37,756 bases of DNA. Origin: an uncultured Pirellulales bacterium. Its GTDB lineage: Bacteria; Planctomycetota; Phycisphaerae; Sedimentisphaerales; Anaerobacaceae. Where the stretch lies: the NCBI GenBank assembly GCA_964569935.1, contig CAZMWN010000002.1:1-37756 (forward strand). The letters are read 5' to 3'. The translations under genes and the position numbers were made by a program. The notes beneath the pieces are model-generated. The model worked only from the letters and a program-made list of their open reading frames with translations. It was not told the origin of the DNA and searched no databases. Each line of letters begins with the position of its first letter. Within the stretch, counting starts at the first letter, position 1. This document shows, one piece after another, positions 12,501 through 35,676 of this stretch.

Positions 12501-14850
12501 GGGAGCTACGGCGTGGGACGATATTACCAATCCGGACGCCGCCGATACTATCGACTTCGGAGTTCATATTACTCAGCTTGACGTCAACGACTTTAGAATA
12601 GGTGACGTAGGCGCAGGGTATATGAAAATCGCCAAACATGCAGTCTCTTTTGTGGGGACGGGTGATATAGACTTACCGAATGACTCTGTCGATGATGCCG
12701 ATATAAATTGGGGTGACCTTACCGATTTGGCTGCTGGTGGAGTTTTGAGTGGCGATTGTGTCGATGAAAATCATATTGCAGATAACGGTATTGATTCGGA
12801 GCACTATAACGATGATTCAATTGATAATGCTCATATAAACTGGGCTGACATTGATAACTTGGGTGACGAAGGGGCAGTAACTTTGGCGGCAACCGTTACA
12901 GTAGCCGATGATGAGGATACTGATGACGACCAAGAGATAGTATTTACTACCGACAATGCTACATTGGAATCGGATGGTGATTTCCACTATAGCCCCGACA
13001 CCGGGACGGTTACAGCGACGGAATTTTCAGGAGGTGGAGCCAGTCTAACGGCGGTGGATGCGGCTACAGGTGATTCAGCGACGGATTTCTTCGACGCTGG
13101 TGAGATTGCTGATGACCGTATTAGCGATACGCTGACTTCAAGTACATGCACTGGTAACGCAGCTACAGTGACGACAAATGCAAACCTGACAGGCGATGTG
13201 ACCAGTACGGGCAACGCTACAGATATTACAGAGTCTGTTCTTGCCGTTGGTGGAACTGATACTGTTTTCCCGGCAGACCCGGGCGCTGATAAATATTTAA
13301 TGTGGGACGATGACCCAGGTGAACTTGTCTGGAGTGCTGTGGCGGGAGCCGGTGATATGACGAAGGCCGTCTATGATGTGGCAGAAAATAGCTTTGTTGA
13401 CGGCAATGATACGGTTTATTCGAGTGCAATGAACGGCAATATTGACGCCCCATCTTCGAATATTATATATGATTATCTGCATCAGATTGATACTGACGAT
13501 GATGGTGACGCCGACAATATTCAGGATTTATTTATTAAATTAGTAGGCGATACTACCGGAGCGATGAGCGAGGATTTGAATTTAGACGATGGAACTTTTG
13601 TTGTTGATTATGATAGTAACAGAATAGGCATAGGAACTGCTACTCCCAATGACCCATTAACGGTAAAGGCAGATGCAAATAATAATACTATCAGATTGAT
13701 TGAGACGGACGGAGACGAATATGTCGATATAAGGATAGCTGCAAATGGAAATTTCGAGATATACAGGGATGGTGGACAAATAGCTTTTTCGATAGATGAC
13801 TATACCGGTCGAATTGGAATTGGAACTGATACTCCGGACGCACTACTTCACATTCAACAGCCGGACACTACTTATTCGTTTCTAAAACTTAAAACTGATG
13901 CTACTTGGCTTGGTCTTTCTCCTTCTGCCGATGATGGTTTACTATGGGGAACTAATATTGCAGGTGGTGTTTCAAACGGGAATACGATTTTTACTTCCTT
14001 TGATAATCTTAGTTCAGACCACGACCACGAAGCTGTCGAAACCGATCCTGCTATTTATCTTCATTCTGCGACCGACCCGGATACAGCTAATACCGAATGG
14101 GGAAAGTTTATATTCAAAGGAACAGGTGCCGGCGGCGGATATTTAGAAATATCGACAGGTGTAGGAGATATTGCTTTGGCGCCGATAGGCAGTGTTGGTA
14201 TCGGTACTACGAGTCCGGATACCAAACTCCAAGTGGTAGGAGCATTGAAAGTCGGCGATGACAATACGAATTATTTCTCGGCGGGGACTACCGGTGACGT
14301 TTCTTTTACCGGTTCGGCTTCGTTTAGTCCCCCATCCGGAACTGATCCTGATGTCGATGCTTCGGGAGAGATTTCTATTGATACGGATGGAGCGAATGAG
14401 CCTAACGATGTCATTTTAAGAACGGCAGATACGGGCGGTGATACACAGTATGTATTGGCAAGAAGTATAAAAATGTATTCTTTCCACATAGAAAACCCGG
14501 ACGAATTGGAGACAGGTTCGGGTAGAGCGGACAAATGGGTCAAAGTTGGCAGCCCTAAAGGTGTAAGTTTTAAAATAACGAAAATAGAGGCATGGAGCGA
14601 TTCGGATAATTACGATTTTGAGCTTTATGAAACAAATGGAAGAACAGATTTTAGCCAGGCCAACGATTCTCTTATAGACACAATCGAATGTGATGCAAAT
14701 GGTACAGGAATATATACAGACCAGGAGACTTCCGGTTTCGATGATGCAATAATAGATGCGGACGACTGCATATTATTCGTTCATAAAGCTGGTACTACAA
14801 GTAAGGTATCGGTTGATATTTGGGGCTATGAAAATGCGAATGTGGACTGA
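9538..14850 (+). CDS. giant mosaic tail-fibre/adhesin-like protein with signal peptide
   Basis: 1770 aa. N-terminus is MKKKIIVIIIILIFVASVYA/AE. It contains several families of internal repeats. The C-terminal part carries three IGIGT..P...L.V motifs of the kind seen in fibre proteins. Confidence 0.75.
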   Translation: MKKKIIVIIIILIFVASVYAAEVKWSAMATKSNASSDDLTLIVDDPGGTPTSYAITRDNFIKSWTGDVNIATVGTIGTGTWNGTAIDISDYTNLAVVDLLSLSDDTIDANTAAIVEDDAKHLATNEQIYDFVIGLGYITADPNTHDAVTYDTNMAIIFSLTNQVIEVNIATPTNGRDDALSTSDDIYDWGVAAFQVLDANLTAIAAITYGSKGNLRNTGEGAWDIDANSYSLSNHDHSGTYEPADANLTAIAALTYDSTGFLRNTGEGTWDIDANSYQLSDANLTTLSAPTAWRLFYSDGDSIIQQLALGTDGQYLKSNGATSAPTFDTPGGSGDMLKSTYDVAEDGYVDGNDTAYDATSWNGNINAPSMNAVYDYLHQIDSDDDGSLVDESWWTTWKLDDWASPDDNTDLNVSTSAHGLMVKLPNDSTKVFDGSGSWVDVEDLSDEIAAGIAEGELNNSIIVSDDIKDGEVDVSDDTNLTVVDLLKLTDDSIDANTAAVVEDDAKHLATNEQIYDWGVAAFQPLESTLTDIADGTIAENLVNTDNPWADDEVADDITASSYLDLSTYDNAEDGFVDGNDTAYNATSWNGNINAPSMNAVRDKIEALPGGHDAVTLDTNMATIYTLTSQAIEVNIVSPTDGRDDAISTSDDVYDFVIGLGYITATLTEEEVEDFVGGMLGGTETHISVTYQDDTGDIDFVVSPSSVAGAIGAGEYADNTINNADLNWSDITYLSDTGKLVVGDNESTNENNLIAFIADANGAGNEILETDGDFHYNPSTGTVTATEFVGGGAGLTAVDAATGDSATDFFDAGEIADDRISNTLTSSTCTGNAATVTTNANLTGEVTSVGNAATIADSVTVTGWVLGTSSATQITSPTLITDLIDTTGAADMDYGSGDVTDHTFIADGGTAVIDGSFQFPDADGSPSVVGEFQYDNTVTGIKDGTLVWYDDDEVRYLVDVNVLPSDDDFVVSYDADNDMFYMKTDADSGGATAWDDITNPDAADTIDFGVHITQLDVNDFRIGDVGAGYMKIAKHAVSFVGTGDIDLPNDSVDDADINWGDLTDLAAGGVLSGDCVDENHIADNGIDSEHYNDDSIDNAHINWADIDNLGDEGAVTLAATVTVADDEDTDDDQEIVFTTDNATLESDGDFHYSPDTGTVTATEFSGGGASLTAVDAATGDSATDFFDAGEIADDRISDTLTSSTCTGNAATVTTNANLTGDVTSTGNATDITESVLAVGGTDTVFPADPGADKYLMWDDDPGELVWSAVAGAGDMTKAVYDVAENSFVDGNDTVYSSAMNGNIDAPSSNIIYDYLHQIDTDDDGDADNIQDLFIKLVGDTTGAMSEDLNLDDGTFVVDYDSNRIGIGTATPNDPLTVKADANNNTIRLIETDGDEYVDIRIAANGNFEIYRDGGQIAFSIDDYTGRIGIGTDTPDALLHIQQPDTTYSFLKLKTDATWLGLSPSADDGLLWGTNIAGGVSNGNTIFTSFDNLSSDHDHEAVETDPAIYLHSATDPDTANTEWGKFIFKGTGAGGGYLEISTGVGDIALAPIGSVGIGTTSPDTKLQVVGALKVGDDNTNYFSAGTTGDVSFTGSASFSPPSGTDPDVDASGEISIDTDGANEPNDVILRTADTGGDTQYVLARSIKMYSFHIENPDELETGSGRADKWVKVGSPKGVSFKITKIEAWSDSDNYDFELYETNGRTDFSQANDSLIDTIECDANGTGIYTDQETSGFDDAIIDADDCILFVHKAGTTSKVSVDIWGYENANVD
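9814..9927 (+). repeat. intragenic repeat A, copy 1 (NLAVVDLL...NEQIYD)
   Basis: 38 codons. 33 of 38 residues are identical to the copy at 10972-11085 (my count). Confidence 0.8.
10972..11085 (+). repeat. intragenic repeat A, copy 2 (NLTVVDLL...NEQIYD)
   Basis: In-frame copy of 9814-9927, joined to a different downstream module (WGVAAFQ instead of FVIGLGYIT). Confidence 0.8.
11845..12090 (+). repeat. intragenic 246-nt repeat E, copy 1
   Basis: 82 codons (DGDFHYNPSTGTVTATEF...NLTGEVTSVGNA). 75 of 82 residues are identical to the copy at 12973-13218. Confidence 0.85.
12973..13218 (+). repeat. intragenic 246-nt repeat E, copy 2
   Basis: 82 codons. By hand count, 59 of 246 nt differ from copy 1 but only 7 of 82 residues do. 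Confidence 0.85.
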
Positions 14851-14851
14851 T

Positions 14852-15622
14852 ATGAAACGATTGATTTTATCTACTATTTTCATACTATTTTGCACTAATT
14901 TAGTACATGGAGTTGTAGGCTCTCCGATTGCTTTGTGGTCTTTAGAGAGCGGTGCATTTACGGTAGATTCTGAAGGTGGCAATACTTTGACCGAGGGCGA
15001 AGCTCCAGATGCTGAGACCGGGGATTATAAGGAAGGTTCTTCATGTGCCGATTTTACACCCGCAGCCGAAGGCGGTGACAGTCTTTACATAGCGGATGGC
15101 GACCTTGACGCAGACTTCCCGTTGAAAAACGGTGTGGGGACACAGAAGATTACTTTCTGTTGCTGGTGTAAATTTGATACTCTGCCGACCAATGTGAACG
15201 ATTATAGAATCCTTCTCTACAAATTAGATACTCTTCAATTAGCGATACGCAAACATGCTGACACAAATACTTATTTTTGTTTCGATTATTCCACTGACGG
15301 CTCTTCGTGGGAAGGTGTAACCTATCATGCTTCTGCTGTTGCGGTTGACACATGGTATCACTTCGCATTCGGGATGGACAGTGACGGCGACTATAAGATG
15401 AGGATATGGGACGATACCGCTCAAGACAGCTTCGGAGCAGACATCGGAGATACGGCAAGCGCTTTCGTGCCGAGTAACGAGACTTTATATATAAGCTATC
15501 CTTCCACTCAGGGAATGGACGGGTTGATTGATGAAGTGTTGATATATGATGACTACCTTGACGACTCCACGATTGACCAAATACGAGAAGGGAAAAAATC
15601 ACAGGTAATAATAATACAATGA
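14852..15622 (+). CDS. LamG/concanavalin-A-like lectin-fold protein with signal peptide
   Basis: 256 aa from ATG 14852, one nt after the stop of the 1770-aa gene. N-terminus is MKRLILSTIFILFCTNLVHG/VV. The C-terminal motif GMDGLIDEVLIYDDYLDDSTIDQI is typical of LamG_3-type domains. Confidence 0.6.
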   Translation: MKRLILSTIFILFCTNLVHGVVGSPIALWSLESGAFTVDSEGGNTLTEGEAPDAETGDYKEGSSCADFTPAAEGGDSLYIADGDLDADFPLKNGVGTQKITFCCWCKFDTLPTNVNDYRILLYKLDTLQLAIRKHADTNTYFCFDYSTDGSSWEGVTYHASAVAVDTWYHFAFGMDSDGDYKMRIWDDTAQDSFGADIGDTASAFVPSNETLYISYPSTQGMDGLIDEVLIYDDYLDDSTIDQIREGKKSQVIIIQ

Positions 15623-16815: not shown

Positions 16816-17685
16816 ATGGCCGATAATGACGCTAAAACATTTGAAGTGAATCTCGCTATATCCAAGACGAAAGCGGGGATTCAGGATACGGGTGAACTTT
16901 ACTCTTCGGGTATAGATGATAGTGTTTTCGCAGACTTTAATACCGGTGAGAACAATACTATTAAACGTGCTGCTTTGTATTACGAGACGTGCCTTTTGAG
17001 ATGTCTCGATGAGATAAGGCCGGACTTCGCCAAGAGGTTCGCCGATTTAGGTAACAGGATAACAATCAATAAAGAATACGGCGATTGGTCTTGTCTTTTT
17101 GAAAAACCTTCCAACTTTCTTTACTTAATAAGGCAAACGGACGAGAGCAGTAAAAAATTAAATTATGATTGTCAGCCTTTGGATTTCACGAATTACGCCC
17201 ATACGGTGACAGGTTCGGACGATGATGTTTACGTCTGTACGACAGCACATACCTCTGCTGACGATACTGACGACGGTGAGCCGCCTGATGACGATGGAAG
17301 CGGAAATTGGACTCTCGATAGTACGGACGAATACACAGGTGCAGACTGGGAGGAGAGCAAGGCTTATAAAGCTTCACAAAGCGGAATTCTCTTGGCTACA
17401 AATACTTTATCAAATAGCGACGGCGACAGTGCCTATATCGAGTATATTCCTTACGAGCAGGCTGGGATTAACGATGACCCAACGAAATACACCGAGTCTT
17501 TCAAGCATGCTTTTGCTACACTTCTCGCCAGTGAAATTGAGACGGATTTCGAGAGAAGGCAAAAACTTCTTAACGAATATGAACTTATAGCGAAGCCGAA
17601 GGCTAAAGAGACTAAAACCAAAGACGACCACGAAAAGAAAACGACTTTAGTTGTTGATGCAAGGAGCAATCTAAGAGTAGGATGA
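16816..17685 (+). CDS. virion protein in the adaptor / tail-tubular-A position (putative)
   Basis: 289 aa with AGGAG RBS. It directly precedes, and is ATGA-coupled to, the nozzle-like gene. The assignment rests on position only. Confidence 0.4.
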   Translation: MADNDAKTFEVNLAISKTKAGIQDTGELYSSGIDDSVFADFNTGENNTIKRAALYYETCLLRCLDEIRPDFAKRFADLGNRITINKEYGDWSCLFEKPSNFLYLIRQTDESSKKLNYDCQPLDFTNYAHTVTGSDDDVYVCTTAHTSADDTDDGEPPDDDGSGNWTLDSTDEYTGADWEESKAYKASQSGILLATNTLSNSDGDSAYIEYIPYEQAGINDDPTKYTESFKHAFATLLASEIETDFERRQKLLNEYELIAKPKAKETKTKDDHEKKTTLVVDARSNLRVG

Positions 17686-20600
17686 AAAGAGTATTTCTTT
17701 TAACATTTTTGTGCTCCATAGCTTTAGGGGTGACTACGAAGAAGAATGTATCTCTTCATTCTTTTAATGCAGGCGAGCTTTCTCCGTTAATGAATGCCCG
17801 CAGTGAACTCGTTAAATACAAGACTGGTGCTAAGACTCTTGTTAATATGCTCGTAAGGTCGCAAGGGCCTGTCCAGAGACGGCCTGGAACGAAATACATC
17901 GCCGAAGTAAAAGACTCAAACGACTTTGTAAGACTTATTTCTTATAGAGTAAATGACGACAATGAATACATCGTGGAAATGGGCGATGAATACTTGAGAT
18001 TTTGTCACGATGGCTCTCAAGTGACTTATGGGGAAAGTCCTTACGAAGTAAGTTCTCCTTACGATGCAAACGATATATTTGAGGTTCAGTATGCCCAGGA
18101 TGCTGAATATATGAGGTTCGTTCATCCTGACTATCCACCATATAAGCTTGCCTATTCCGATGAGACTTCATGGGCAATGGACAAAATAGCATTTCGTAAC
18201 GGCCCGTTTCTCAAAGAAAACGAAGACACCGCGGTAAAAATAACTCCGACTTACGAAGTCGAGCCTTCCGGTGATATAACAAACGAGGCTGGATGCGAGT
18301 ACGATGCAAGCAGCGCATACGCAGATTTCTATACTGCTTCAAAGGCGTTTGATAATGTTATTTCGTATTTGGATGGTTGGGGTGCGACAAGTTACGATGA
18401 TGAATGGATAAGCTGTAAGTGGACGGAAGCCAAGACGATAAAGAAAGTCAGGATTCAGAATTGTTTTAATAAAGATTGGATAGCTGTTGACGTTGCAAGA
18501 TGCAAAATAGAAGGTAGTAATAACGGTTCGGATTGGACGAAAATACCAATCAATGATTGGGCGGGTGCTTGCCATGTTTATGATACGAACGAGGCCCTTT
18601 TGGATTGGACTCGTGATTACGAATTATGGGCGACGCTCTATCTTGATAACGATACGGCCTATACTTATTATCGTGTTTATTGTTATGATTCGTGGGGTTC
18701 TTATTACAATTGGACCGGAAGGTTCGGCAGTTCGGAGATTTTACTTGGCCTTAATGAAATAGAAATGATGGAAGATGCCGATTATACTGGCGAAGGTGAA
18801 GTAAAGCTTGAAGCGACAGACGATATATTCGATGAAGAGCACGAAGGTTCCTTGTGGCAAATAAGCCACGTTCTCGATTCCAATAGTATTAAAGGTCAAT
18901 TCGGTGGTTCGGATGAAACCAAACTATATTACGATTATGACAACCCCGGAGCCGGTTGGGTAGAATCTGATTATTCCGGTGAGATAAACGTATATGAGAA
19001 TCAATACATAGATTTTTCCACGCATTCGAGCTGGTCAGGTACTATAATTCTTCAAAATTCATACGATGACGGCACTACATGGCACATAGTATGTGAACAT
19101 ACATACGATTACGACGGCAATATTATCTGGAGTGGTCAGGAAAGGGAAGACAATGCTGTATATAGGATTTATATGAAAACCTATAACGGCGGATTTCCAT
19201 GTTTCAATTTATCTTCGAGGGGAATGACTTACGGCGGTGTAGTAAAGATTACTTATTACGTTGACGCCAACGAAGTGTATGGCACTATATTAAAAGAACT
19301 TGCAAGTACAGATGCCACTTACAAATGGTCGGAGGGGGCATGGAGCGATTATCGTGGCTGGCCTCGTACAATAGCTCATCACGAACAAAGATGTATTTAC
19401 GGCGGATCATCTTCTTATCCCGATAATATTTGGGCTTCTATAACAATGGAAGAAAATGAAGATTACGACGATTTCGATGTAGGATTAGGAGACAACGATG
19501 CCGATGCCTGGACTTATATCTTAGCGGGAGTTAATCAAATTCAATGGATGCTGTCGAGAGAGTTTTTAATGATAGGCACTTCGATAGGCATAGGTAGATT
19601 AGGCCAGCCCGACAAACCTATTACTCCGACATTCGATCCTACTTTCAGAATGCAGGCCATGAACGGCTCGGCTTATATACAGGCTGTGCCGGCGGGCAAT
19701 GCTATACTTTATATAGAACGTGGCTCCCAAAAGGTCAGGGAAGTAACTTATACTCATACTTCCGAACGGTACGTTGCGCCTGATATGACAATTCTCTCCG
19801 AGCATATAACAGGTGATGGAATTACTCAGATAGCTTTTCAGAACAGGCCAGACCTTATTTTATGGTGCGTTCGTGAAGATGGGACTTTGCTTTCTTTTAC
19901 TTACAATAAAGACCATGAAGTCCTCGCTTGGGCGAGACATACAACTGGCGACTCAGATGATTTTGAATCAATAGCCTGCATTCCTAATACCAACGAAGAC
20001 GAATTGTGGGTAATAACTAAAAGGGAAATCAATTCGATTGACAGGCGTTACATAGAGCAATTCCAGCCCGTGGATTGGGGAACCGACCAAAATGACTGTT
20101 GGTTTGTGGATTGTGCCAAAGAACCAACGCTTTATGAGGGCGCACCGTCAAAAGGTAAGGATTCTAAGGAAATATTACTGGCATACAATCCTGTACCCGG
20201 CATTATTGTTACCGATGTTCCACCATTGTATTTATCCCAGACCTATAAGATATATGAAGACCTTGACCATCTTGAGGGCAGGGATGTATCTGTTTTTGCT
20301 GATGGTTGGCCGATAGGAACATATACGGTTGCGAATGGGCGAATATTTCCGCCAATTGAATATACTAATATAATTGTCGGGCTTCCTTACACTTCGACTT
20401 TCGAGACGATGCCCTTGGCAACTTATACGGATTTTGGTATGAGTGCCTATCAAAGAACGCAAGTTCAAAATCTCACTTTGGATTTATACGAAACTCTCGA
20501 CTTTAACGTGGGAACAGATTCGACTCATACTCAGGCACAGGCCATATCTTCGCTTAAAACCGGTCTGTGGCCAACGGAGTTCCCAAGAGGTAGATTTACA

Positions 20601-20690
20601 GAGCCAACAATATATTTCGATGTTAATGAACCTTCTCCGTTTACTTTAAGGGGAATTAGTTGTCAACTTGAAATTTCTTATCAGGAATAA
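17682..20690 (+). CDS. tail tubular protein B / nozzle-like protein with inserted discoidin-like domain
   Basis: 1002 aa. The N-terminal motif SLHSFNAGELSPLMNARSELVKYKTGAKTLVNMLVRSQGPVQRRPGTKYI matches the pattern I recall for BPP-1/T7-group nozzle ('stabilisation') proteins. A GTG at 17730 is a possible alternative start. Confidence 0.5.
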   Translation: MKRVFLLTFLCSIALGVTTKKNVSLHSFNAGELSPLMNARSELVKYKTGAKTLVNMLVRSQGPVQRRPGTKYIAEVKDSNDFVRLISYRVNDDNEYIVEMGDEYLRFCHDGSQVTYGESPYEVSSPYDANDIFEVQYAQDAEYMRFVHPDYPPYKLAYSDETSWAMDKIAFRNGPFLKENEDTAVKITPTYEVEPSGDITNEAGCEYDASSAYADFYTASKAFDNVISYLDGWGATSYDDEWISCKWTEAKTIKKVRIQNCFNKDWIAVDVARCKIEGSNNGSDWTKIPINDWAGACHVYDTNEALLDWTRDYELWATLYLDNDTAYTYYRVYCYDSWGSYYNWTGRFGSSEILLGLNEIEMMEDADYTGEGEVKLEATDDIFDEEHEGSLWQISHVLDSNSIKGQFGGSDETKLYYDYDNPGAGWVESDYSGEINVYENQYIDFSTHSSWSGTIILQNSYDDGTTWHIVCEHTYDYDGNIIWSGQEREDNAVYRIYMKTYNGGFPCFNLSSRGMTYGGVVKITYYVDANEVYGTILKELASTDATYKWSEGAWSDYRGWPRTIAHHEQRCIYGGSSSYPDNIWASITMEENEDYDDFDVGLGDNDADAWTYILAGVNQIQWMLSREFLMIGTSIGIGRLGQPDKPITPTFDPTFRMQAMNGSAYIQAVPAGNAILYIERGSQKVREVTYTHTSERYVAPDMTILSEHITGDGITQIAFQNRPDLILWCVREDGTLLSFTYNKDHEVLAWARHTTGDSDDFESIACIPNTNEDELWVITKREINSIDRRYIEQFQPVDWGTDQNDCWFVDCAKEPTLYEGAPSKGKDSKEILLAYNPVPGIIVTDVPPLYLSQTYKIYEDLDHLEGRDVSVFADGWPIGTYTVANGRIFPPIEYTNIIVGLPYTSTFETMPLATYTDFGMSAYQRTQVQNLTLDLYETLDFNVGTDSTHTQAQAISSLKTGLWPTEFPRGRFTEPTIYFDVNEPSPFTLRGISCQLEISYQE

Positions 20691-20693: not shown

Positions 20694-21278
20694 ATGGGAG
20701 CTTTATCTTTATTTATGATGGCTGGTGGCCAGACGATGCAGGGCATTCAGAAATATCGCCAGCTCAAAAAACAAAAAAGTTCCTTAAAGGCACAGGCGGC
20801 AGAGCTTGACTTGCAGGCTAAATATACCGAACGAATGGCATTGAGAGGCCAAAGAGAACTATTAGAGCAGGAAGATATTACTTTAGGCACTCAAAAAGCG
20901 AGAACGGCAAAGGCCGGATTGAGAGTAGGTGGTGGTTCAGCTTCTGCAAGGAGAAAAGCATTATCTGAGAAATATGGTCGTGCGAGAGAAACGATTGAGA
21001 TGCAGGCAAGCGAAGAAATCAGGCGATTAAATTATCAGGCTGCGATTCTCCGCAAAAGGGCTAAAGAGGCCAAAAAAGCGAGCAAATGGTCGAAGTTGAC
21101 TTCTTTACTGGCTGGTGGTGTCGCTTTAGGAATTGGTTTATATGGTTTGGGGTTTTTTGGTGGTGGTGCAGCGGGGACTGCTGCGTCAACTAGCGGTCTC
21201 GGTGGTATGAGTAGTAGCGTTGGTGGCTCTGGCGGTGGATTATTAGGTGGTCCTACTGGATTAATACCACCAGTTTAA
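20694..21278 (+). CDS. internal virion protein (gp14-position), coiled-coil plus Gly-rich hydrophobic tail
   Basis: 194 aa, which fits the T7 gp14 size class. C-terminus is LLAGGVALGIGLYGLGFFGGGAAG...GGSGGGLLGG. Confidence 0.45.
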   Translation: MGALSLFMMAGGQTMQGIQKYRQLKKQKSSLKAQAAELDLQAKYTERMALRGQRELLEQEDITLGTQKARTAKAGLRVGGGSASARRKALSEKYGRARETIEMQASEEIRRLNYQAAILRKRAKEAKKASKWSKLTSLLAGGVALGIGLYGLGFFGGGAAGTAASTSGLGGMSSSVGGSGGGLLGGPTGLIPPV

Positions 21279-21290: not shown

Positions 21291-22841
21291 ATGAACATAT
21301 TTAGAGATTATACGGGACAGGAAGAGCAGGCAAAAGCCGAGTTCGGACGGACTTTATTCGATATAGGCTCAATGTTACTTTCTGAAACTATACGCAAAAA
21401 AGAGAGTGAAGAATACTCGAACGCTATAGGACGATTCATTTCAGAGTCAGAAGAATATTACGCATGGCAAAGAGAGAACGCCGACAAGCCGGAAGAATTC
21501 GTGAGCGAGATTGACAGTCGTAAAGACAGAATGTTATCGAACATTTTAAAGGACGTAAAGACTCCGGGCGCAAGAGATAAGATAATCAACAGGTTCAGTA
21601 TAGATTTCGAGCAAATTCGAGCGGGTGCAGCGGAGACGTCCTTTAGGCAATCACAAACGAACAAGGAACAGGCTTTCGACATTAACCTTACTAATGCAAT
21701 TGATATTCCCGCCGATACGCTTTTAACGGAATCGGTAGTGCAAAACCGCATAGACTCCGTTATAGAACTTATTGACGAAAACTACGGTGGCGTTCCAGAT
21801 TTAATGACGCCCGAACAACAGAAATTCATCGAAAATGAAGCCTTTCAATCAATAATAAGTCAGTACATTCTACAAAATGCCCAGAGTGTTGATGATATAG
21901 GCAAAGCCAACCAGATAGCCAGAGGGTTTGGCGTTGATCCCGTTTTCAATGCCAATGAGATTGTGAAATTAAGGTCAAGTTTTCAAGCTCAAATAAGAGC
22001 ACAACAGCGATTAGATGATGATGAATTGAAAAGAATTCATGGAGAAAATTCACGACAGCTTATTGCCGATTATTGGGATGGTAAATTAAACGATCCTCAA
22101 GTTGTAAGTGATGCTTTAAGGAATAACCTGATAGATGGAACGACTGCAAAGTATTTGTACAATGGATTGACTAAATCAAATCCAGACAAGCTTGATTTTA
22201 TCGCCTATCGTGAAGTCAAAGAATCGATTAATGATGTTGGTTTGGGTACTAAAACAGTAGATGAAGCCTATAAAGTTTTAATGAAAAATTCTTTGAAATT
22301 AGATAAGACAACTGGTAAGTCATTGGCGGCGGAGATTATAAGCGAGCACAATAAAGCCGACGAGGAAATGAAGCGAGAGGCACGTTCTTTAATGGAGGAA
22401 CTTATAAGAGAAAAAGACCCGTTAAGTGGTATGTTCAAAGATGACAAGTTGCAGATATTAGCTACCGCCGAAGCCGTTCTTACTCTTGATAAAGAACTTG
22501 AGAAAGCCGCCGAACAGGGAAAACCGTTGGAAAGGCGTGACATCTTGATAAAGGCTATGGAAGTTGGCAAAATGATAATCAAGCGCGAAAGGCTCGATGA
22601 AAAACAACCTACACCAGAAGGAGTAATAACTCATCAGATAAGCGAAAAACAACCGAATAGAGCAGGACAGACGGCTTACTCGATACCGAGCAATGTTCCG
22701 ATAGGTACTTATAATAAAGAAGGCTCGATAATCTTGAATGAACGTGGTGTTTTGTGGCTTAGGGATTACGCACGTAAAAACGGAATGACTATAGAGCAGG
22801 CGAGAAATTTCGCAAAAGAGAATAACTGGATAATACAATAA
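21291..22841 (+). CDS. internal virion protein (gp15-position, putative)
   Basis: 516 aa with a helical, charged composition. It lies between the 194-aa and 1368-aa genes. Confidence 0.4.
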   Translation: MNIFRDYTGQEEQAKAEFGRTLFDIGSMLLSETIRKKESEEYSNAIGRFISESEEYYAWQRENADKPEEFVSEIDSRKDRMLSNILKDVKTPGARDKIINRFSIDFEQIRAGAAETSFRQSQTNKEQAFDINLTNAIDIPADTLLTESVVQNRIDSVIELIDENYGGVPDLMTPEQQKFIENEAFQSIISQYILQNAQSVDDIGKANQIARGFGVDPVFNANEIVKLRSSFQAQIRAQQRLDDDELKRIHGENSRQLIADYWDGKLNDPQVVSDALRNNLIDGTTAKYLYNGLTKSNPDKLDFIAYREVKESINDVGLGTKTVDEAYKVLMKNSLKLDKTTGKSLAAEIISEHNKADEEMKREARSLMEELIREKDPLSGMFKDDKLQILATAEAVLTLDKELEKAAEQGKPLERRDILIKAMEVGKMIIKRERLDEKQPTPEGVITHQISEKQPNRAGQTAYSIPSNVPIGTYNKEGSIILNERGVLWLRDYARKNGMTIEQARNFAKENNWIIQ

Positions 22842-25800
22842 ATGCCGGATTTACTCGAAAAAATATGGGATGAAACGACTACCGAAGATTCGCTTGAAAG
22901 GGCATGGAATCAACCTCAACAAAAAGAATACGACCCCAAAAAAGAATACGAAGAAATAGAAAATATAGTCGATATGAAAATCGATTTACCTGAATTAGAT
23001 ATGCGTGATATTCAGGACAATTATAGACTTCTCGTTGCAGATCCGCAGGACTTCAAACCACCGAAGGTCGAAGATGCTACTTTGCGATTGGAGGCTTATA
23101 AACCAACTAAATGGGAGAAGATAAAAAAGTTTTTAATAGGCGAGCCTACTTACTACTTGCCGCCGGACGCCGACAGACTTGAGAAAGCGAAACAGATATT
23201 CGATGGTGTAATGTCAAATACCATCGGTCAGGCTTTGAAGATAGGCAAAGGTGGCCTTTTAGGTTTAGGTGAGATTGCATGGGCGGTTATAAAAAGAGAA
23301 ACACCTCAAGAGAATTGGGACGATGAAGTTCGCAATATGAGCCTTAATGAGGCTATGGATTGGCACGCAGGTTACAAGCCAGGGACTTTGCCAAATATAA
23401 TAGGTGACATTTCAGAATTTGCTGCGAGAATACAAGCGGTAGCACCTTTAGCACAGAAAATCGGACTTATAGGAAACACTCCCAAAGACATATCCGTTCT
23501 GCAAAAAGCGGCGGAAACGGCGAAACTTTTCGGCGGTGCAGCGGTAGTCGAACAAACGGCAAAGCTCACTTCGGAAATCATAGACCCAACCGAAGCTGAG
23601 TATGGATACGAAGGCCCGAAGGCCGTTCTTCGGGATATGGCAATAGGAGCAGCGTTTAGTATTGTTTCTCAAGGTGTTAGTAAGATATGGAAAGTTTTAA
23701 CTCCAAACGAACAAACGAGAGCCCTAAAGCTTTTGGGTTTGAAAAAAGGAGCTTCACCGGAAGAAATTACTAAAGCATCGAGAAAAATGGCTTTGAAATA
23801 TCACCCTGATAAAGTCAAGGGATTTGAGGAAGAATTCAAGAAAGTCATTAAAGCAAGGGATTTGCTTCGCAAAGGAGAACCACAGGATATTGTTTTTCGA
23901 GGCCAGAAAGTTACATTTAAGCCAAAACTTTTAGAAGGCGAAACAGTTGAACAACAGGCAATTCGTCTCAAAAAAGCTCCCCGGAAGCCTGTAGAGGCCA
24001 AACACCCCTTAGTTACCCCCAAAGAAGCGGAGAAAGTCCAGACAGCGAAGGCACAAGCTCAGGAAGTAGTACAGGAAGAGCAGCCGTGGGAAATGACGAA
24101 AAAAGAATATGGAAAACAAGAATCAAAAGTCAATTCAAATGTTTCGGGTATAAATTTGGTAGATAGAGCGGGAAATAAACCACTTTATCCACAAAGTTGG
24201 GAATGGAAATTAGCAGAAAGAATGCAGGAAAAGATTAAAAATGAGGGACATTTAGAAATATACGATCAAGCACAAACTGGTTCTCTTTATGGAAATATTG
24301 TATTTAATGATGGCAGAATATATCCTATTAGAATATCAGACCATCCAACAAAAACTAATTTGAATATTTTAAACAAAGCAAGAAAAGAAGCTAAATTTTT
24401 GGGAGAAGGACAACATAAAGAAATAGTCCAGAAGGCTTTATCTGAAAACAAGCCTGTCCCCCGCGAAGTTCTTGAAGAATACAAAGGCGAGAAGTGGGCG
24501 GACGAAGCCCTTGCGAAGATGGTGCCTTCCAAGACCGAGCAGGTCATTGAGAAACTAACTTCAAGGAATCTTGAATCAGCACCAGAACAGGAAATATCTA
24601 AAACAATTGACGAAAATATCGGTTTCGAGAAAGGTTTTGCCGAAGTGCCGAGATTGTCTTTTGTCAAAGAGGTTTACGAAAGGGCGCATGATTGGATATA
24701 TACTTTTGGCGAGACGAGAAGAAAAAACCCAGAATTGTACGATAAACTTTTCAAAGCATTTGGTAAGCGCAACGCTGCTGTCGAGAAGGCCATAAGCAAA
24801 CTTGAGAAAATAATACCGAAGCAAATCAAAATCTATGACGATGTCAATCTTTCGATAAGCTACGAGGATAAGAGACTCACACCGCCAAAGGACTTAGAAG
24901 AAACTTATAATGCTTACTCTGAAATTCTTGATGAAATCGAACGAAAACAGTTGGCCGAGGGGATATTCAAACAGAAATTTCAGGAAAGAATGATTGAGGA
25001 AAACAATGTCAGGATAGATGCACTCAAGGCCAAACTCATTCATCCGGAGAATTCGGTTAGAATACAAAGACTGATTGCGGAGAATGAACAATTAAAGAAT
25101 ATGCGTTATCTTCCTCATAGCAATGTGGCAAGAGCAGTGATTGAGGAAAGAATTAACCGCCTTCCACACGATAAGCGCAAGGCCATGCTCGATAAATTAA
25201 GTTATATTTACAAAAAGCGCAAAGGCAAGTTGTTCCTTAAAGATTATCTTAAGGAAGGTATAATCGAGAAAGACGATATAAGAATGTCACGTCTTGCTGC
25301 TCAAAGTCTTACTTCCTATTATTATCGTTCCGCTTTGAAGGAATTACATGAATACGCAAAGGCGAACGATTTAATAAAACCAGTGTCCGATGATTTAAGA
25401 GCCGAAGGATGGTTAAATCAAAGAGAGATAGGAATAACGTCACCCGAACTCAAGGAACAACTCGTTCATCCTCTTTATGCTCAAGCACTTAGGGAAATGG
25501 TCGAAATGCGCCATGGAAGGGGTAGTTTAAGACAGCAAATATTCGGGATGGTCAAAATTGGACAATTCATAAAACCAACTATTATATATACTTACAATGC
25601 AGTCCAGAAGTATTTCAGGGGCATGTACAGTCTTAATCCAAAGCATGAAGTCAAGAATCTCACTGAAGCCTTTAGTATAGTCCTTAATCAAACGCCGGAA
25701 TATCACAAGCTTAACGAATCGAATTTATACCAATTCCCTTACGAAGTATCACGTGCAGCGCAGGAAGAACAGATACAGGCATGGATTAATCAGCATAATC

Positions 25801-26948
25801 CCGACATCGAAAAGGCGATAAAATGGTTCGAGAAAACTACCGAAACGCCCTGGTTCGGAACGGACGTCACGCTCGGTAAAGCTACTAAGAATTTATTGAT
25901 GGCTGCTCATAGGGCGGTCGCACGTTATACATGGCTCGGTGACAAAGTCCAGAGAACACAAAGTTATCTTACTTTAAGACAAATGGGTTATCCGCATGAT
26001 GAAGCAGTCAAAGTAGCTTCTCAGGGACACGGAGGCTATTCGCTTCTTTCGAGAAAATACAAGGAGTTCATGTCAAAATATTTCTTCGTCTATAGTTTTA
26101 GATGGTTGATGCCTATCGAGATGGGTAAGACGTTGGTTGAACCGATAACCGATGGTCTTTATAATTACGTCAAGACTGGTGAAAAACCACCGAGACATAA
26201 AATGGAACGCTGGGCGAAAGCGTGGATAGGAGCGGTGGCTATTCCAGTCATGATAGATAGTTATATGCGGTGGCGTGGATTCGAGCCAGACGACAAGCAT
26301 CTTGGTCCTCTGGCGTGGAAGTACAAAAAAACGGTTGTAGTTGATGGTCAAGAAAATGAAATTGTTGTGGGTTTGAATTATATTCTTAATCAACCAATTA
26401 AATACTGGCAAAGATTTTCTTCTTATGATCCGATAAGGCCGGAGACCCGCTGGATGCAATCGCTAAAAAATGTGGCCAAATGGGAAATACATCCTTTATA
26501 TAGAATATTTTTCTGGGATATTTCTCAAAATCGAAGGAGTTTTGGTGCCGGCCAACAAGTATATAATACCGAAGCGAATCCAATATTACAATTTGGTCAA
26601 ATCTCTTCTTATATAATGGGACAATCTTTCAGGTTCATCGGCGGAATGATGGATGCGGTTGGTGAAGGTTCGATGACTGATAAAGAAAAGGAAAAACAAA
26701 AAACTATTTTAAAGGAAGGATTAACCTCTTTCGACAGGATACTATTCAAAGTATTAGGTTATAGTTATACACGACTCCCGCTTGAAGAAAGAAAAAATAT
26801 CGCCAAAGCACGGCTGCTCAAAGAGATAAGAACTCGCGGTATAAAGTATGGCCGCAAATACGAAGGTCAGAAATTAGACGAAAAAATGGATGAACTCAGA
26901 AATTGGGCACTGGAAATCGAAAAATGGATTGAAGAAGATATGAAGTAA
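22842..26948 (+). CDS. large internal virion/ejection-type protein carrying a J-domain
   Basis: 1368 aa, in the T7 gp16 size class and position. Residues of about 290-345 read ALKLLGLKKGASPEEITKASRKMALKYHPDKVKGFEEEFKKVIKARDLL, with HPD at residues 321-323. Confidence 0.6.
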   Translation: MPDLLEKIWDETTTEDSLERAWNQPQQKEYDPKKEYEEIENIVDMKIDLPELDMRDIQDNYRLLVADPQDFKPPKVEDATLRLEAYKPTKWEKIKKFLIGEPTYYLPPDADRLEKAKQIFDGVMSNTIGQALKIGKGGLLGLGEIAWAVIKRETPQENWDDEVRNMSLNEAMDWHAGYKPGTLPNIIGDISEFAARIQAVAPLAQKIGLIGNTPKDISVLQKAAETAKLFGGAAVVEQTAKLTSEIIDPTEAEYGYEGPKAVLRDMAIGAAFSIVSQGVSKIWKVLTPNEQTRALKLLGLKKGASPEEITKASRKMALKYHPDKVKGFEEEFKKVIKARDLLRKGEPQDIVFRGQKVTFKPKLLEGETVEQQAIRLKKAPRKPVEAKHPLVTPKEAEKVQTAKAQAQEVVQEEQPWEMTKKEYGKQESKVNSNVSGINLVDRAGNKPLYPQSWEWKLAERMQEKIKNEGHLEIYDQAQTGSLYGNIVFNDGRIYPIRISDHPTKTNLNILNKARKEAKFLGEGQHKEIVQKALSENKPVPREVLEEYKGEKWADEALAKMVPSKTEQVIEKLTSRNLESAPEQEISKTIDENIGFEKGFAEVPRLSFVKEVYERAHDWIYTFGETRRKNPELYDKLFKAFGKRNAAVEKAISKLEKIIPKQIKIYDDVNLSISYEDKRLTPPKDLEETYNAYSEILDEIERKQLAEGIFKQKFQERMIEENNVRIDALKAKLIHPENSVRIQRLIAENEQLKNMRYLPHSNVARAVIEERINRLPHDKRKAMLDKLSYIYKKRKGKLFLKDYLKEGIIEKDDIRMSRLAAQSLTSYYYRSALKELHEYAKANDLIKPVSDDLRAEGWLNQREIGITSPELKEQLVHPLYAQALREMVEMRHGRGSLRQQIFGMVKIGQFIKPTIIYTYNAVQKYFRGMYSLNPKHEVKNLTEAFSIVLNQTPEYHKLNESNLYQFPYEVSRAAQEEQIQAWINQHNPDIEKAIKWFEKTTETPWFGTDVTLGKATKNLLMAAHRAVARYTWLGDKVQRTQSYLTLRQMGYPHDEAVKVASQGHGGYSLLSRKYKEFMSKYFFVYSFRWLMPIEMGKTLVEPITDGLYNYVKTGEKPPRHKMERWAKAWIGAVAIPVMIDSYMRWRGFEPDDKHLGPLAWKYKKTVVVDGQENEIVVGLNYILNQPIKYWQRFSSYDPIRPETRWMQSLKNVAKWEIHPLYRIFFWDISQNRRSFGAGQQVYNTEANPILQFGQISSYIMGQSFRFIGGMMDAVGEGSMTDKEKEKQKTILKEGLTSFDRILFKVLGYSYTRLPLEERKNIAKARLLKEIRTRGIKYGRKYEGQKLDEKMDELRNWALEIEKWIEEDMK

Positions 26949-27810: not shown

Positions 27811-28683
27811 ATGAAAATTGCGTATATTAAAAAACGGTTTCATAGTGGTTCATTAGAAATAATTGACCACGCAAACGATATAATTGAGGAATATCAACAA
27901 GAAGATTACGACCTGACTTTGCGTCAATTGTATTATCAGTTTGTAGCACGGGATATAATTCAAAATAAGCAATCGGAATATAATAGGCTCGGTTCGATTA
28001 TAAATGATGCAAGGCTTGCAGGTTTAATAGATTGGGATAGTATAATTGACAGAACGAGAGAGTATGAGTCTTTGTCTCACTGGAACAGCCCGGCAGATAT
28101 TCTCAAATCAGCAGCAAAAAGTTATAATGTTAACACAAGGATAAACCAAAATTATTACATAGAAGTTTGGGTTGAAAAGGACGCTTTAGTTGGTGTTATT
28201 GAACAAGCATGTGACCCATTGGATGTGGGCTACTTATCTTGTCGTGGATATGTTTCTCAATCTGAAATGTGGCGTTCTGCACAAAGATTTAATCGTGCTA
28301 AGAATTGGCATAACTGTATTTTGTTACATTTTGGTGACCATGACCCTTCGGGCATAGACATGACCCGTGATATTGAAGATAGATTGAATCTCTTTGATGC
28401 TGAACTTGAAGTTTCAAGAATAGCTCTTACTATGGAACAAATAGAAGAATTCAATCCGCCACCAAATCCAGCAAAGACAACTGACAGTAGATACAATTCA
28501 TACATAAAAGCTTATGGAGAAGATTCTTGGGAATTGGATGCGCTTGACCCTCGAATCTTAACCAAACTGATTAATGAAAATGTGAATTATTATACAGAAA
28601 AGAAAAAACGAAATACTCTTATAAAAAAACAAGAACAAGAGAGAAAGCAAATATTTGAAATTGCAAATAAATTTATTCTCTAA
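27811..28683 (+). CDS. stand-alone Topo VI subunit A / Spo11-like protein (5Y-CAP + Toprim; Mini-A type)
   Basis: 290 aa with AAGGTG RBS. LTLRQLYYQFV (R38, Y41/Y42) fits the catalytic-tyrosine motif. IEVWVEKDAL (E122) and HFGDHDPSGIDM (D176, D178) fit the Toprim acidic motifs. Confidence 0.6.
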   Translation: MKIAYIKKRFHSGSLEIIDHANDIIEEYQQEDYDLTLRQLYYQFVARDIIQNKQSEYNRLGSIINDARLAGLIDWDSIIDRTREYESLSHWNSPADILKSAAKSYNVNTRINQNYYIEVWVEKDALVGVIEQACDPLDVGYLSCRGYVSQSEMWRSAQRFNRAKNWHNCILLHFGDHDPSGIDMTRDIEDRLNLFDAELEVSRIALTMEQIEEFNPPPNPAKTTDSRYNSYIKAYGEDSWELDALDPRILTKLINENVNYYTEKKKRNTLIKKQEQERKQIFEIANKFIL

Positions 28684-32593: not shown

Positions 32594-32720
32594 GAAGGCT
32601 CTTAGATATCGAGTAATGACATGCAAATCGGCTGCTTGTACTGAAAAGCATCCATGTAAGGCTTGCCGTTCTGACATGAGATTAATCAAGCAAACAGTGG
32701 AGCAGGAAAATGAATCCTGA
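32535..32720 (+). CDS. small Cys-rich ORF, start uncertain (32562 or 32616 are alternatives)
   Basis: At most 61 aa, containing CKSAACTEKHPCKAC. It overlaps both neighbouring genes. Confidence 0.35.
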   Translation: MLNLEKKYQMLTWNLLRQCRKALRYRVMTCKSAACTEKHPCKACRSDMRLIKQTVEQENES

Positions 32721-33312
32721 ATATATATATTGTGAGCAACTTAGTGAAGAATGGTATCAAACAAGATTAGGTTTGGTAACTGCAAGCCATTTTTCAGAGG
32801 TTCTAAATAGAGGTTCCGGACGTAAAACATATATGATGAGACTTCTGGCCGAGAGAATGACAGGTCAAACTCATCCGGCTTTTAGTAATCAATATATGGA
32901 AAATGGAATTGAGACCGAGCCATTCGCAAGAGAATACTATGAGGGCTTGAAGAAAAATAAAGTCGAATGTATTGGCTTTATAAGAATGGGAGAAATGGGA
33001 TGTTCACCTGATGGTTTGGTTGGCGACGAAGGTATGATAGAGATTAAATGCCCTCTTCCCTCTACTCACCTTGAATATATCTTGAGAGATAAAATGCCGA
33101 CAGTTTACATACCACAAGTTCAGGGCAATCTTATGGTATCTGGTAGGAAATGGTGCGACTTTATATCCTTCGATTCTAAAGTCACAAAAAGGCCTTTCTG
33201 GTCTATACGAATTGTACGTGATGAAAGCTACATCAGAACACTAAAAGAAGCAATAGAGCAATTTTTATATGAATTAAAATCTTTAGAACAAAAAATCGAA
33301 GTCCCATTTTAG
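32710..33312 (+). CDS. YqaJ-type (lambda-exonuclease-like, PD-(D/E)XK) recombination exonuclease
   Basis: 200 aa. Motifs seen: EEWYQTRLGLVTASHFSEVL, GCSPDG, IEIKCP and IPQVQGN. Confidence 0.7.
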   Translation: MNPEYIYCEQLSEEWYQTRLGLVTASHFSEVLNRGSGRKTYMMRLLAERMTGQTHPAFSNQYMENGIETEPFAREYYEGLKKNKVECIGFIRMGEMGCSPDGLVGDEGMIEIKCPLPSTHLEYILRDKMPTVYIPQVQGNLMVSGRKWCDFISFDSKVTKRPFWSIRIVRDESYIRTLKEAIEQFLYELKSLEQKIEVPF

Positions 33313-33324
33313 AAGGGAGATATT

Positions 33325-33936
33325 ATGACAGAGCAATTACTTGCCAAAAAAGAAGTTCAAGAGATAACTCAGGAACGTGACAATTTGATTGTTAGGGCGA
33401 ACAATCATATAGTTGATAATCAGGACAACGCAGAGGAAGCAAATACAATTCTTGTTGCTATAAACAACGGCCTGAAAAACATAGAAGCAAAGAGAAAGTC
33501 CTTTACATCGCCTTTAAATCAATCTCTCAAAGAGATAAATGCCACATTCAAGAATCTTGTTGCACCTATCGAATTAGCAAAATCGGCATTATCTAAACGC
33601 CTTATGGATTGGCGGACAGCAGAACAAAAGAGAATCAGAGAGGAGCAGGAAAAAGCTCAAAGAGAAGAAGAACGCCGCCGAAAGATTCAGGGAGCCCATG
33701 CTGCCAAAGGACATAAAGTCAGTGAGGAAATAACACCTGTCGAAAAACCAGTTCCTTTTGCTATGAAAGATACTACAAAGACAAGAACTATATGGGCGCA
33801 CGAAATCATAGATGAAAATATTATACCAAGACGATATCTAAGCGTAAACACTTCGGCCATCACAAAGGCAGTGCGTGAAGGCGTTAGAGATATTCCTGGC
33901 GTGAAAATATTTCAGAAAGAAATTCCAATATTCTAA
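33325..33936 (+). CDS. coiled-coil protein of the recombination module (function unknown)
   Basis: 203 aa with GGGAG RBS. It sits between the exonuclease and the annealase. I recall a weak resemblance to Gp157/Gam-type accessory proteins but cannot verify it. Confidence 0.5.
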   Translation: MTEQLLAKKEVQEITQERDNLIVRANNHIVDNQDNAEEANTILVAINNGLKNIEAKRKSFTSPLNQSLKEINATFKNLVAPIELAKSALSKRLMDWRTAEQKRIREEQEKAQREEERRRKIQGAHAAKGHKVSEEITPVEKPVPFAMKDTTKTRTIWAHEIIDENIIPRRYLSVNTSAITKAVREGVRDIPGVKIFQKEIPIF

Positions 33937-33947
33937 AAGGTGAAATT

Positions 33948-34613
33948 ATGATAGAGAAAAGTGAAAACATAACAAATCTTGCAGCAGCTTTATTAAAGGC
34001 TCAAAAGGCCATTGGTATTGCTATTAAAAATGAGAAAAATCCTTATTTCAAGAGCAATTACGCTGACCTAAAAGCAGTAATAGAGGCTGTCAAAGAACCA
34101 TTAAACGATAATGCAATATCTTTTCTTCAAGCTGTCAATGTTCGCAATGGTAGCGAATTGCCTGTAATTGAAACGATGCTCTTGCATGAAAGTGGACAAT
34201 ATCTTAATTCTGTGACGCCAGTATTTTGCTCAAAGCCTAATGATCCACAGGCTTTTGGTTCAGGTGTAACTTATTCAAAGAGATATGCTTTGCAAGCCAT
34301 TCTCGGATTGCCAACGGCGGATGACGATGCTGAGAAAGCTATGGCACGAGGGAAAAAAGAAAGTCCAAAACCACCGGAAACTGATATAACAGAATTGATA
34401 AATGCAGCTTATGAAACTTATACAACTATGGTTAAGGATGATATAGCTGATGGTTTCTATATAAATCCCAAAAAATTCAAAGATGCGGTTAGGGAACAGT
34501 TCAAAAAGTTGACACCAGCTAAGCGTAAGAAGTTTGAATGGACTTCGGAGAGCGTTGCCGGGTTGGTAAAAAATATCAAATCGGCTGATGTATTTTCAGA
34601 AATTGGTAAATAA
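33948..34613 (+). CDS. erf: ERF-family single-strand annealing protein
   Basis: 221 aa. Motifs seen: NLAAALLKAQKAI, NPYFKSNYADLKAVIEAVKEPL and GSGVTYSKRYALQAILGL. Confidence 0.7.
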   Translation: MIEKSENITNLAAALLKAQKAIGIAIKNEKNPYFKSNYADLKAVIEAVKEPLNDNAISFLQAVNVRNGSELPVIETMLLHESGQYLNSVTPVFCSKPNDPQAFGSGVTYSKRYALQAILGLPTADDDAEKAMARGKKESPKPPETDITELINAAYETYTTMVKDDIADGFYINPKKFKDAVREQFKKLTPAKRKKFEWTSESVAGLVKNIKSADVFSEIGK

Positions 34614-35041: not shown

Positions 35042-35049
35042 ATATAATA

Positions 35050-35077
35050 TTGACAACTTATAGTGAATGGAGATAAT
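35050..35077 (+). promoter_or_regulatory. sigma70-type promoter upstream of the HNH-AP2 gene
   Basis: TTGACA (35050-35055), a 16-nt spacer, then GATAAT (35072-35077). Confidence 0.45.
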
Positions 35078-35666: not shown

Positions 35667-35676
35667 GGAAAAAATA

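Follow-up and report, generated by a model that had tools for sequence, protein, structure and literature searches.

What is a co-chaperone domain doing inside a giant protein at the end of a phage structural block? J-domains stimulate ATP hydrolysis by Hsp70 through their HPD motif, and Hsp70 is thereby loaded onto nearby clients. To get out of the head, the ejection proteins of short-tailed phages have to thread a narrow channel in unfolded form, after which they refold into a conduit across the cell envelope; some of them deliver enzymes. The two subjects meet in a 37,756-nucleotide stretch of DNA (the window) from an assembly of an uncultured Pirellulales bacterium (GenBank GCA_964569935.1, contig CAZMWN010000002.1, positions 1 to 37,756 of the forward strand), where a T7-like structural block closes with a gene for a 1368-residue protein, called the J-protein below. 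An earlier reading of the window from its letters alone (the sequence-only reading) had reported a J-domain in this product. The locus asks whether the domain is genuine, what kind of protein carries it, and how it might work.

A genuine J-domain in the 1368-residue protein

The open reading frame at 22842-26948 (+) was uninterrupted over 1368 codons. The peptide quoted in the sequence-only reading, ALKLLGLKKGASPEEITKASRKMALKYHPDKVKGFEEEFKKVIKARDLL, corresponded to residues 294-342 of its product, and the span given there, 23709-23876, to residues 290-345. The central features were placed as follows.

22842 to 26948, + strand: gene for the 1368-residue multidomain protein, at the end of the structural block and in the gp16 (IVP-D) slot
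23700 to 23876, + strand: J-domain, residues 287-345, with helix I, helix II, HPD loop and helix III (Pfam, PDB, model)
23802 to 23810, + strand: HPD tripeptide, residues 321-323 (translation, family alignment)

The Pfam DnaJ profile (PF00226; gathering score 27.8) aligned with residues 296-344 along its positions 4-55 of 63 and scored 41.3 bits (E 1.7e-10); the isolated 94-residue fragment scored 48.4 bits (E 1e-12). When phmmer was run against all PDB chains, every match was a J-domain; human Hsp40/DNAJB1 was the best (E 1e-8), and Sis1, DNAJA1, E. coli DnaJ (E 1.7e-4) and, weakly, Sec63 were also found. With the family profile, the best J-domain match in the PDB improved to E 2.6e-11. Read from the translation, helix II carries the basic residues K311, R314, K315 and K319, and helix III the core pattern F..I..A...L (F332, I336, A338, L342). 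By a hand count from the sequence, the helix II-III loop has three residues fewer than its counterpart in E. coli DnaJ. The AlphaFold model of residues 95-372 was all-helical at moderate confidence (mean pLDDT 67.7); blocks of the J region reached a mean pLDDT of 85, and the HPD lay between model helices 306-319 and 322-343. Foldseek paired the J region with the J-domain of Sis1 (prob 0.89, 44% identity over 57 columns), at an E of only 1.5.

Relatives of the J-protein were recovered from a search of 5.8 billion proteins. All 51 (792-2110 residues) came from metagenomes or metagenome-assembled genomes (MAGs), and 47 of them had a precomputed PF00226 match; Pfam DnaJ was detected in 26 of the 29 family members scanned. 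The HPD was present in 48 of 52 aligned family sequences, the four exceptions being two with YQPG, one with HQD and one in which the J-domain was missing. F332, A338, R339 and L342 were near-invariant across the alignment. Because the HPD was kept in 48 of 52 members at an overall identity of 14-60%, the J-domain of the 1368-residue protein is confirmed as genuine, far beyond chance. Thus the canonical J-domain claimed by the sequence-only reading at about residues 290-345, with HPD at 321-323 (nucleotides 23802-23810), held up in Pfam, in the PDB matches and in family conservation, and the PF00226 hmmsearch that it had suggested as a check passed the Pfam cut-off.

By Pfam, PF00226 was the only domain of the protein, and helix IV, the G/F region, the zinc finger and the DnaJ C-terminal domain were absent; the phmmer matches in the PDB ended at the J-domain boundary. 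Lacking a G/F region, a zinc finger and a DnaJ C-terminal domain, the product is a class C J-protein. From its sequence, we infer that its J-domain would stimulate the ATPase of DnaK.

Modular organization around the J-domain

The J-domain belongs to a module of about 280 residues common to the family, window residues 95-372, made up of helical segments, the J-domain and a post-J motif, with differing parts downstream. The regions outside the J-domain were delimited as follows.

23124 to 23699, + strand: conserved all-helical N-terminal module (N-module), residues 95-286 (family alignments, profile search)
23622 to 23690, + strand: most hydrophobic helix, residues 261-283 (AVLRDMAIGAAFSIVSQGVSKIW), whose end lies a few residues short of the J-domain
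23886 to 23942, + strand: post-J motif DIVFRGQKVxxKPKLLxGE, residues 349-367, predicted unstructured (family alignment)
23958 to 24641, + strand: variable middle region, residues 373-600, occupied by ART-PolyVal or GNAT in relatives and by two small motifs here
24642 to 26945, + strand: large helical C-terminal module (C-module), residues 601-1368, exchangeable among family members

The N-module was common to the whole family, J-domain or not, and its model gave no fold match in the PDB by Foldseek except the J-domain. Within residues 261-283, G269, A270, S273, G278 and W283 were invariant or near-invariant. A classical transmembrane helix was considered for this segment and rejected, as the maximum Kyte-Doolittle value over 19 residues was 1.23 and the segment contains R264 and D265. 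In the post-J motif, D349 was invariant and P361 near-invariant, at a model pLDDT of 44-49, and in relatives a Pro/Ala/Lys-rich linker came after it. The basic-hydrophobic pattern of this motif is presumably like that of Hsp70 client sites.

Two small motifs were seen in the middle region. The motif EIYDQAQTGSLYGNIVFNDGRIYPIRISDHPTK (residues 472-504, nucleotides 24255-24353) also occurred in P0001 and P0050, and ...KPVPREVLEEYKGEKWADEAL (residues 525-559, nucleotides 24414-24518) in P0014, P0015 and P0045 and twice in P0050. From their sequences, both look like mobile mini-modules.

The C-module, modelled by AlphaFold with a pLDDT of 80.8 and a pTM of 0.79, had 31 homologues, some of them joined to J-less N-termini (P0054, P0055, P0058, P0059, P0063, P0073, P0074 and P0077). 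Conversely, about eight kinds of C-terminal module, distinguished by eye, stood behind one N-module and J-domain. Family modules were hence shuffled both ways, with several C-modules per N-module and several N-termini per C-module. The idea of a single ancient C-terminal family was rejected: compared by hhalign with the remaining C-module types, the window type matched the P0045/P0051 type (probability 78%) and none of the rest.

Relatives with and without the J-domain

A profile of the N-module (residues 95-286 only) was searched against 1.84 billion cluster representatives (50% identity) and returned 90 matches, with 67 full-length cluster representatives, defined as those of at least 700 residues. 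The J-domain came directly after the N-module in 34 of the 67, and the HPD was intact in 30 of these 34. The other 33 had no J-domain; in at least 15 of them, the motif [KR][FYW]PxLxDxxRxxP took its place. The J-less relatives were assigned as follows.

J-less sister clade with the same N-module: P0082, P0083, P0086, P0088, P0090, P0091, P0093, P0095
Further members of this clade: P0105-P0107, P0109, P0118, P0132, P0133
Members assigned by eye: P0054, P0055, P0058, P0059

In several members of the sister clade, [KR][FYW]PxLxDxxRxxP was followed by a segment resembling ...AREAERRF, and some J-less members had the C-module of the window protein too. The alignments argue that the J-domain is under purifying selection within one large clade. 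Since about half of the N-module family is J-less, the domain is an accessory and not part of the core ejection machinery.

In IMG/VR, six viral contigs encoded the module, and the longest matches lay on contigs of 43-56 kb. A look-up of the clusters yielded no names other than 'DnaJ-domain-containing protein' and 'curved DNA-binding protein CbpA'. Searching the GTDB genomes gave two true family matches, one in a Pirellulales MAG (the contig of P0014) and one in a Thermodesulfovibrionales MAG, both of which may be binned phage contigs; all other GTDB matches were cellular J-domains. By exact look-up, the window protein had no entry in public assemblies.

The J-protein gene closes a T7-like structural block

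The sequence-only reading had also placed the gene in the position of T7 gene 16, behind genes for 194 and 516 residues. The genes upstream were annotated as follows.

16816 to 17685, + strand: tail tubular protein A-like, 289 residues (phrog_394 'tail protein', E 4.4e-7)
17682 to 20690, + strand: tail tubular protein B-like, 1002 residues (phrog_376, E 1.7e-159)
20694 to 21278, + strand: gp14-like internal virion protein, 194 residues (phrog_418 'internal virion protein', E 2.7e-11)
21291 to 22841, + strand: 516-residue gene in the gp15 (IVP-C) position (assigned by position only)

The J-protein gene starts one base past the stop of the 516-residue gene, so that tubular A, tubular B, gp14-like, 516-residue and J-protein genes stand in the order of T7 genes 11, 12, 14, 15 and 16. 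The 194-residue protein has one hydrophobic helix (138-156, hydropathy peak 1.73) and a Gly-rich tail, and its match to Pfam T7_gp14 (E 0.0056) was below the cut-off; the 516-residue protein had no match in Pfam or PHROG. The window also encodes a capsid protein and a T7-type portal (Pfam Head-tail_con, E 1e-29), the latter about 21% identical to portals of the pelagiphage HTVC010P type and of a Rhodobacteraceae phage.

The contigs of relatives repeated this arrangement. On L001/L002, L003 and L004 the order was identical, with the J-protein last and then small genes or an integrase. The equivalent 191-residue gene of L003 has an on-record Pfam T7_gp14 match, and genes of 487-571 residues fill the position of the 516-residue gene on L001, L003 and L004. 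On L005 the structural module differs (SU10-adaptor type), yet the J-protein is again the last structural gene. With phrog_394, phrog_376 and phrog_418 identified upstream and the order recurring, the gene position described in the sequence-only reading was upheld.

Several other features were seen in the window. At residues 208-290 of the tubular B-like protein, a weak match to F5/8 type C (discoidin) fell below the cut-off (E 1.4e-5); judged by its sequence, this segment may be a carbohydrate-binding insertion. Between the capsid and tail tubular genes lies an open reading frame for 1770 residues (9538-14850, +) without a match in Pfam or PHROG, which may encode a tail fibre, a spike or a giant virion protein of another kind. 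The next reading frame (14756-15622), with a Laminin_G_3, concanavalin-like domain, overlaps its 3' end by 95 nucleotides. The first sizeable gene past the structural block, encoding 290 residues (27811-28683, +), matched phrog_6247 'DNA topoisomerase' (E 1.5e-110) and nothing in Pfam at E<=0.01. A recombination module at 32710-36474 (+) comprises two adjacent exonuclease-like reading frames (RecE-like), Erf, an HNH endonuclease, SSB and RusA, the HNH frame overlapping that of SSB. Such a module is typical of temperate phages. No integrase was found in the window, and the contigs L001 and L004 have one.

A polyvalent protein in the gp16 slot

Gene position suggests gp16, and the sequence-only reading had called the product a gp16-type protein. 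Homology did not sustain this. No match to T7 gp16 was returned by phmmer or by the family profile against the PDB, hhalign of the family alignment with T7 gp16 gave a probability of 0.1%, and Foldseek of the C-module model against the PDB found no ejection-protein fold (best E 0.33).

Against BFVD, by comparison, the C-module model gave 34 matches at E<=1e-3, with modest TM-scores of 0.3-0.5. The top match was a protein of Cellulophaga phage phi19:3 (E 2.8e-11, TM-score 0.51), and many were annotated as 'large polyvalent protein associated domain' or LPD38. Among the domains of these LPD-annotated proteins are zeta-toxin, ART-PolyVal, RelA/SpoT, lytic transglycosylase and methylase. The window protein itself had no Pfam LPD38 match, and hhalign of its C-module with the LPD38-type C-termini of P0019 and P0022 was negative. 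Domains found by Pfam in J-bearing relatives were as follows.

P0019: J-domain 321-370, ART-PolyVal 416-531, LPD38 1705-1866
P0022: J-domain 303-353, LPD38 1260-1443
P0024: J-domain 300-348, GNAT 487-553, about 140 residues past the J-domain
P0039: J-domain 299-342, ART-PolyVal 411-521 (weak)
P0064: J-domain 331-380, ART-PolyVal 445-551 (weak)

In relatives that have it, ART-PolyVal comes 46-65 residues past the J-domain, the matches in P0039 and P0064 being weak. LPD38 leads back to the ejection proteins through BA3_0002 of Thalassomonas phage BA3 (L086, NC_009990, 1851-9746, - strand), a protein of 2631 residues annotated as hypothetical that has a Pfam LPD38 match (E 2.5e-46) and a methyltransferase domain. 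BA3_0002 is listed as a homologue of T7 IVP-D (Hardies et al. 2016, PMC4819975), so its LPD38 ties this 'polyvalent' domain to the IVP-D family. Two small annotated coding sequences lie inside BA3_0002 on the same strand. A comparison by hhalign with the C-terminal half of BA3_0002 was negative. Homologues of gp16/IVP-D are often recognizable by size and synteny alone (PMC8954989, PMC4819975).

With homology tests to gp16 negative, a fold likeness to LPD38-type proteins and domain shuffling, the 1368-residue product is, on sequence and model comparisons, better described as a modular phage-type polyvalent protein in the gp16/IVP-D slot. It is a positional analogue of gp16 and not a demonstrated homologue.

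The same data could be taken to mean that the J-protein never enters the virion: it would be a late, unpackaged co-chaperone or scaffold for assembly of the tail or core or, in a variant, its J-domain would be a structural helical hairpin without DnaK contact. No homology to solved ejection proteins was detected, in keeping with this account, and a few members have lost the HPD (YQPG, HQD, RPD, KPS, NRPN) but keep the domain, which implies some HPD-independent constraint. We nevertheless consider the account very unlikely. Divergent contigs agree in having the gene last, behind gp14-like and gp15-slot genes, the C-module is similar in fold to LPD38-type polyvalent proteins, and LPD38 occurs in relatives and in the IVP-D homologue of BA3 (PMC4819975). 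Moreover, the HPD is kept in about 90% of J-bearing members, which is hard to explain without Hsp70 contact.

What the J-domain may do

We tentatively propose, putting the chance at somewhat less than even, that the J-domain of this polyvalent protein in the IVP-D slot recruits DnaK locally and in cis, aiding the entry and refolding of the ejected polypeptide. The protein would be packaged in the head in few copies, like other proteins of the IVP-D slot, and the 1368-residue chain would be ejected unfolded through the tail; both packaging and ejection we infer by analogy. Once at the cytoplasmic side, the J-bearing part would stimulate ATP hydrolysis by host DnaK, which would clamp the adjacent unfolded polypeptide, with the post-J motif as a candidate first binding site. 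Such local recruitment in cis would bias the movement of the ejected chain inward, and at the very start of infection DnaK would help the ejected protein, along with its cargo domains, to refold. The working mode would be like that of membrane-tethered J-proteins at the exit of translocation channels, without homology to them.

Published work on related proteins is consistent with several of these steps. T7 gp16 crosses the portal channel partly unfolded and then refolds (Swanson & Cingolani 2022, PMC8954989), and polyvalent proteins are predicted to be injected along with the DNA (PMC5512222). Internal virion proteins 'variably host ... domains destined for the cytoplasm', and cytoplasm-bound domains of IVP-D homologues include the N4 virion RNA polymerase and the H66 gp60 methylase (PMC4819975). 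The ART and GNAT neighbours of the J-domain in relatives need NAD+ or acetyl-CoA, and that part of the polypeptide is therefore expected in the cytoplasm.

Other points weigh against the proposal. Were residues 1-350 of the J-protein periplasmic, as the N-terminal part of T7 gp16 is once ejected (PMC8954989), the J-domain would lie where DnaK is absent. Half of the N-module family is without a J-domain, so ejection as such does not require one. Pfam recognized no enzymatic cargo in the window protein itself, and Kyte-Doolittle hydropathy predicted no classical transmembrane helix in it. Homology to T7 gp16 was rejected, all four comparisons (phmmer, profile against PDB, hhalign and Foldseek) being negative, and the gp16 analogy rests on gene position and a chain through LPD38. 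When the whole protein and residues 95-372 were searched by tblastn against GenBank phages, no match was found at E 1; by this search, the family is without a cultured phage carrier. Finally, the conservation is explained just as well if the J-domain serves in the producing cell, ahead of packaging.

In that last case, the J-domain would recruit DnaK in cis to keep the long, helical and aggregation-prone chain soluble and competent for assembly until it joins the procapsid core, and would be without function after ejection. We hold this to be possible, if on the doubtful side. It accounts for HPD conservation just as well, needs no assumption on the location of the J-domain after ejection, and suits the huge mixed-domain proteins of this family (1100-2100 residues), which are plausible chaperone clients. 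A T7-like topology would favour it, since gp16, once ejected, has its N-terminal third in the periplasm (PMC8954989). Nonetheless, equally large J-less relatives with the same C-module (P0054, P0055, P0058 and P0059) evidently assemble, and the position of the J-domain is not arbitrary but fixed between N-module and cargo. The domains fused to polyvalent and IVP-D proteins are also generally read as acting in the newly infected cell (PMC4819975, PMC5512222).

Copy number bears on a further explanation. The T7 record gives about three gp16 copies per virion; with so few copies, a cell-wide hijack of DnaK is unlikely and local use more plausible. An ejected J-domain might still act as a host-manipulating effector that redirects DnaK toward or away from host clients at time zero, in the manner of Rki of phage RB43 or the J-domain of polyomavirus T-antigen. 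Rki is a phage J-domain protein that acts on DnaK and stabilizes sigma-32 (PMC3486835), polyvalent proteins are thought to deliver host-modifying activities (PMC5512222), and in relatives the J-domain shares its polypeptide with ART and GNAT effectors. This explanation appears quite unlikely to us: some three copies per particle could hardly shift the DnaK equilibrium of a whole cell, Pfam recognized no client-binding domain beside the window J-domain, and proteins of the Rki type are small, stand-alone and made from expressed genes, unlike the window protein.

The proposal of local recruitment in cis can be carried a step further, to a version that we regard as unlikely. Here the tethered J-domain would be half of an Hsp70 import motor in the phage ejectosome, placed at the cytoplasmic mouth of the trans-envelope channel. 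DnaK would be loaded repeatedly onto the emerging polyvalent protein, from the post-J motif onward, and its ATP-driven ratcheting or entropic pulling would power entry and refolding of the ejected proteins and might also help to draw in the leading end of the genome.

Novelty and meaning

Within the open-access full text covered, no internal virion, ejection or polyvalent protein was described with a J-domain or DnaJ. J-domains went unmentioned in the ejection-protein review, the Hardies podovirus papers, the jumbo-phage survey and the Poorviridae paper, and the main text of Iyer, Burroughs, Anand, de Souza & Aravind 2017 (PMC5512222) names no DnaJ or J-domain among the domains of polyvalent proteins. 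The statement of the sequence-only reading that it knew of no characterized ejection protein with a J-domain thus agrees with the open-access literature, which yields none. Judged by sequence, a J-domain embedded in a polyvalent protein of the IVP-D slot, with a sizeable uncultured family, would be a new architecture. It would add a co-chaperone module to the domain repertoire of polyvalent proteins and would set beside Rki a second class of phage J-proteins, with a different architecture.

The finding bears on the question of what assists or powers the refolding and entry of ejection proteins. A conserved, HPD-bearing J-domain in the IVP-D slot offers a concrete hypothesis, that host Hsp70 is recruited to the entering proteins, and the J-less sister clade with the same N- and C-terminal modules provides a natural comparison. 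Even if packaging or DnaK stimulation should fail, the domain would represent a new way to secure chaperone help for a giant structural protein. The import motor, if true, would be the counterpart in a bacterial virus of the mitochondrial PAM motor or of Sec63-BiP, with the host chaperone as energy source.

Comparison with known systems

T7 gp16/IVP-D and the J-protein share a slot, after tubular B, gp14-like and gp15-sized genes, and are alike in size and helical character, with no likeness detected in sequence or fold. Their domains differ as well. The J-protein lacks the lytic transglycosylase domain of gp16, whereas gp16 lacks a J-domain, its only significant Pfam match being SLT. LPD38 is the domain that two J-family members have in common with the listed IVP-D homologue of BA3.

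Phage-type polyvalent proteins (PMC5512222) are likewise very large, multidomain and encoded among virion genes, and the relatives of the window protein likewise swap in ART-PolyVal, GNAT and LPD38. The window protein differs in that its sole recognizable domain is a co-chaperone module and not an enzyme or a DNA-binding domain.

Among phage J-proteins, a 2026 review counted 49 unique ones, of which 48 were class C without another known domain, and Rki was the only one described functionally (PMC13254874). Rki of the T4-like phage RB43 (PMC3486835) is also a class C J-protein with an HPD and, like the J-protein, presumably addresses host DnaK. Compared with the small Rki-type proteins, the J-domain here is embedded at residues 287-345 of 1368, in a protein of the structural block. 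The DnaJ of Pseudoalteromonas phage vB_Pun_Y3, with 194 residues and a place among early genes, is unlike the window protein too.

Pam18/Tim14 with mtHsp70, Sec63 with BiP and bacterial DjlA are membrane-associated J-proteins that place Hsp70 at a translocation channel. The principle that we propose they share with the window protein is a J-domain near a membrane-active segment, from which Hsp70 would grip the emerging unfolded chain. The likeness is one of analogy; homology extends no further than the J-domain, and no true transmembrane helix is predicted in the window protein. In the window protein, the J-domain and its presumed client would be one polypeptide.

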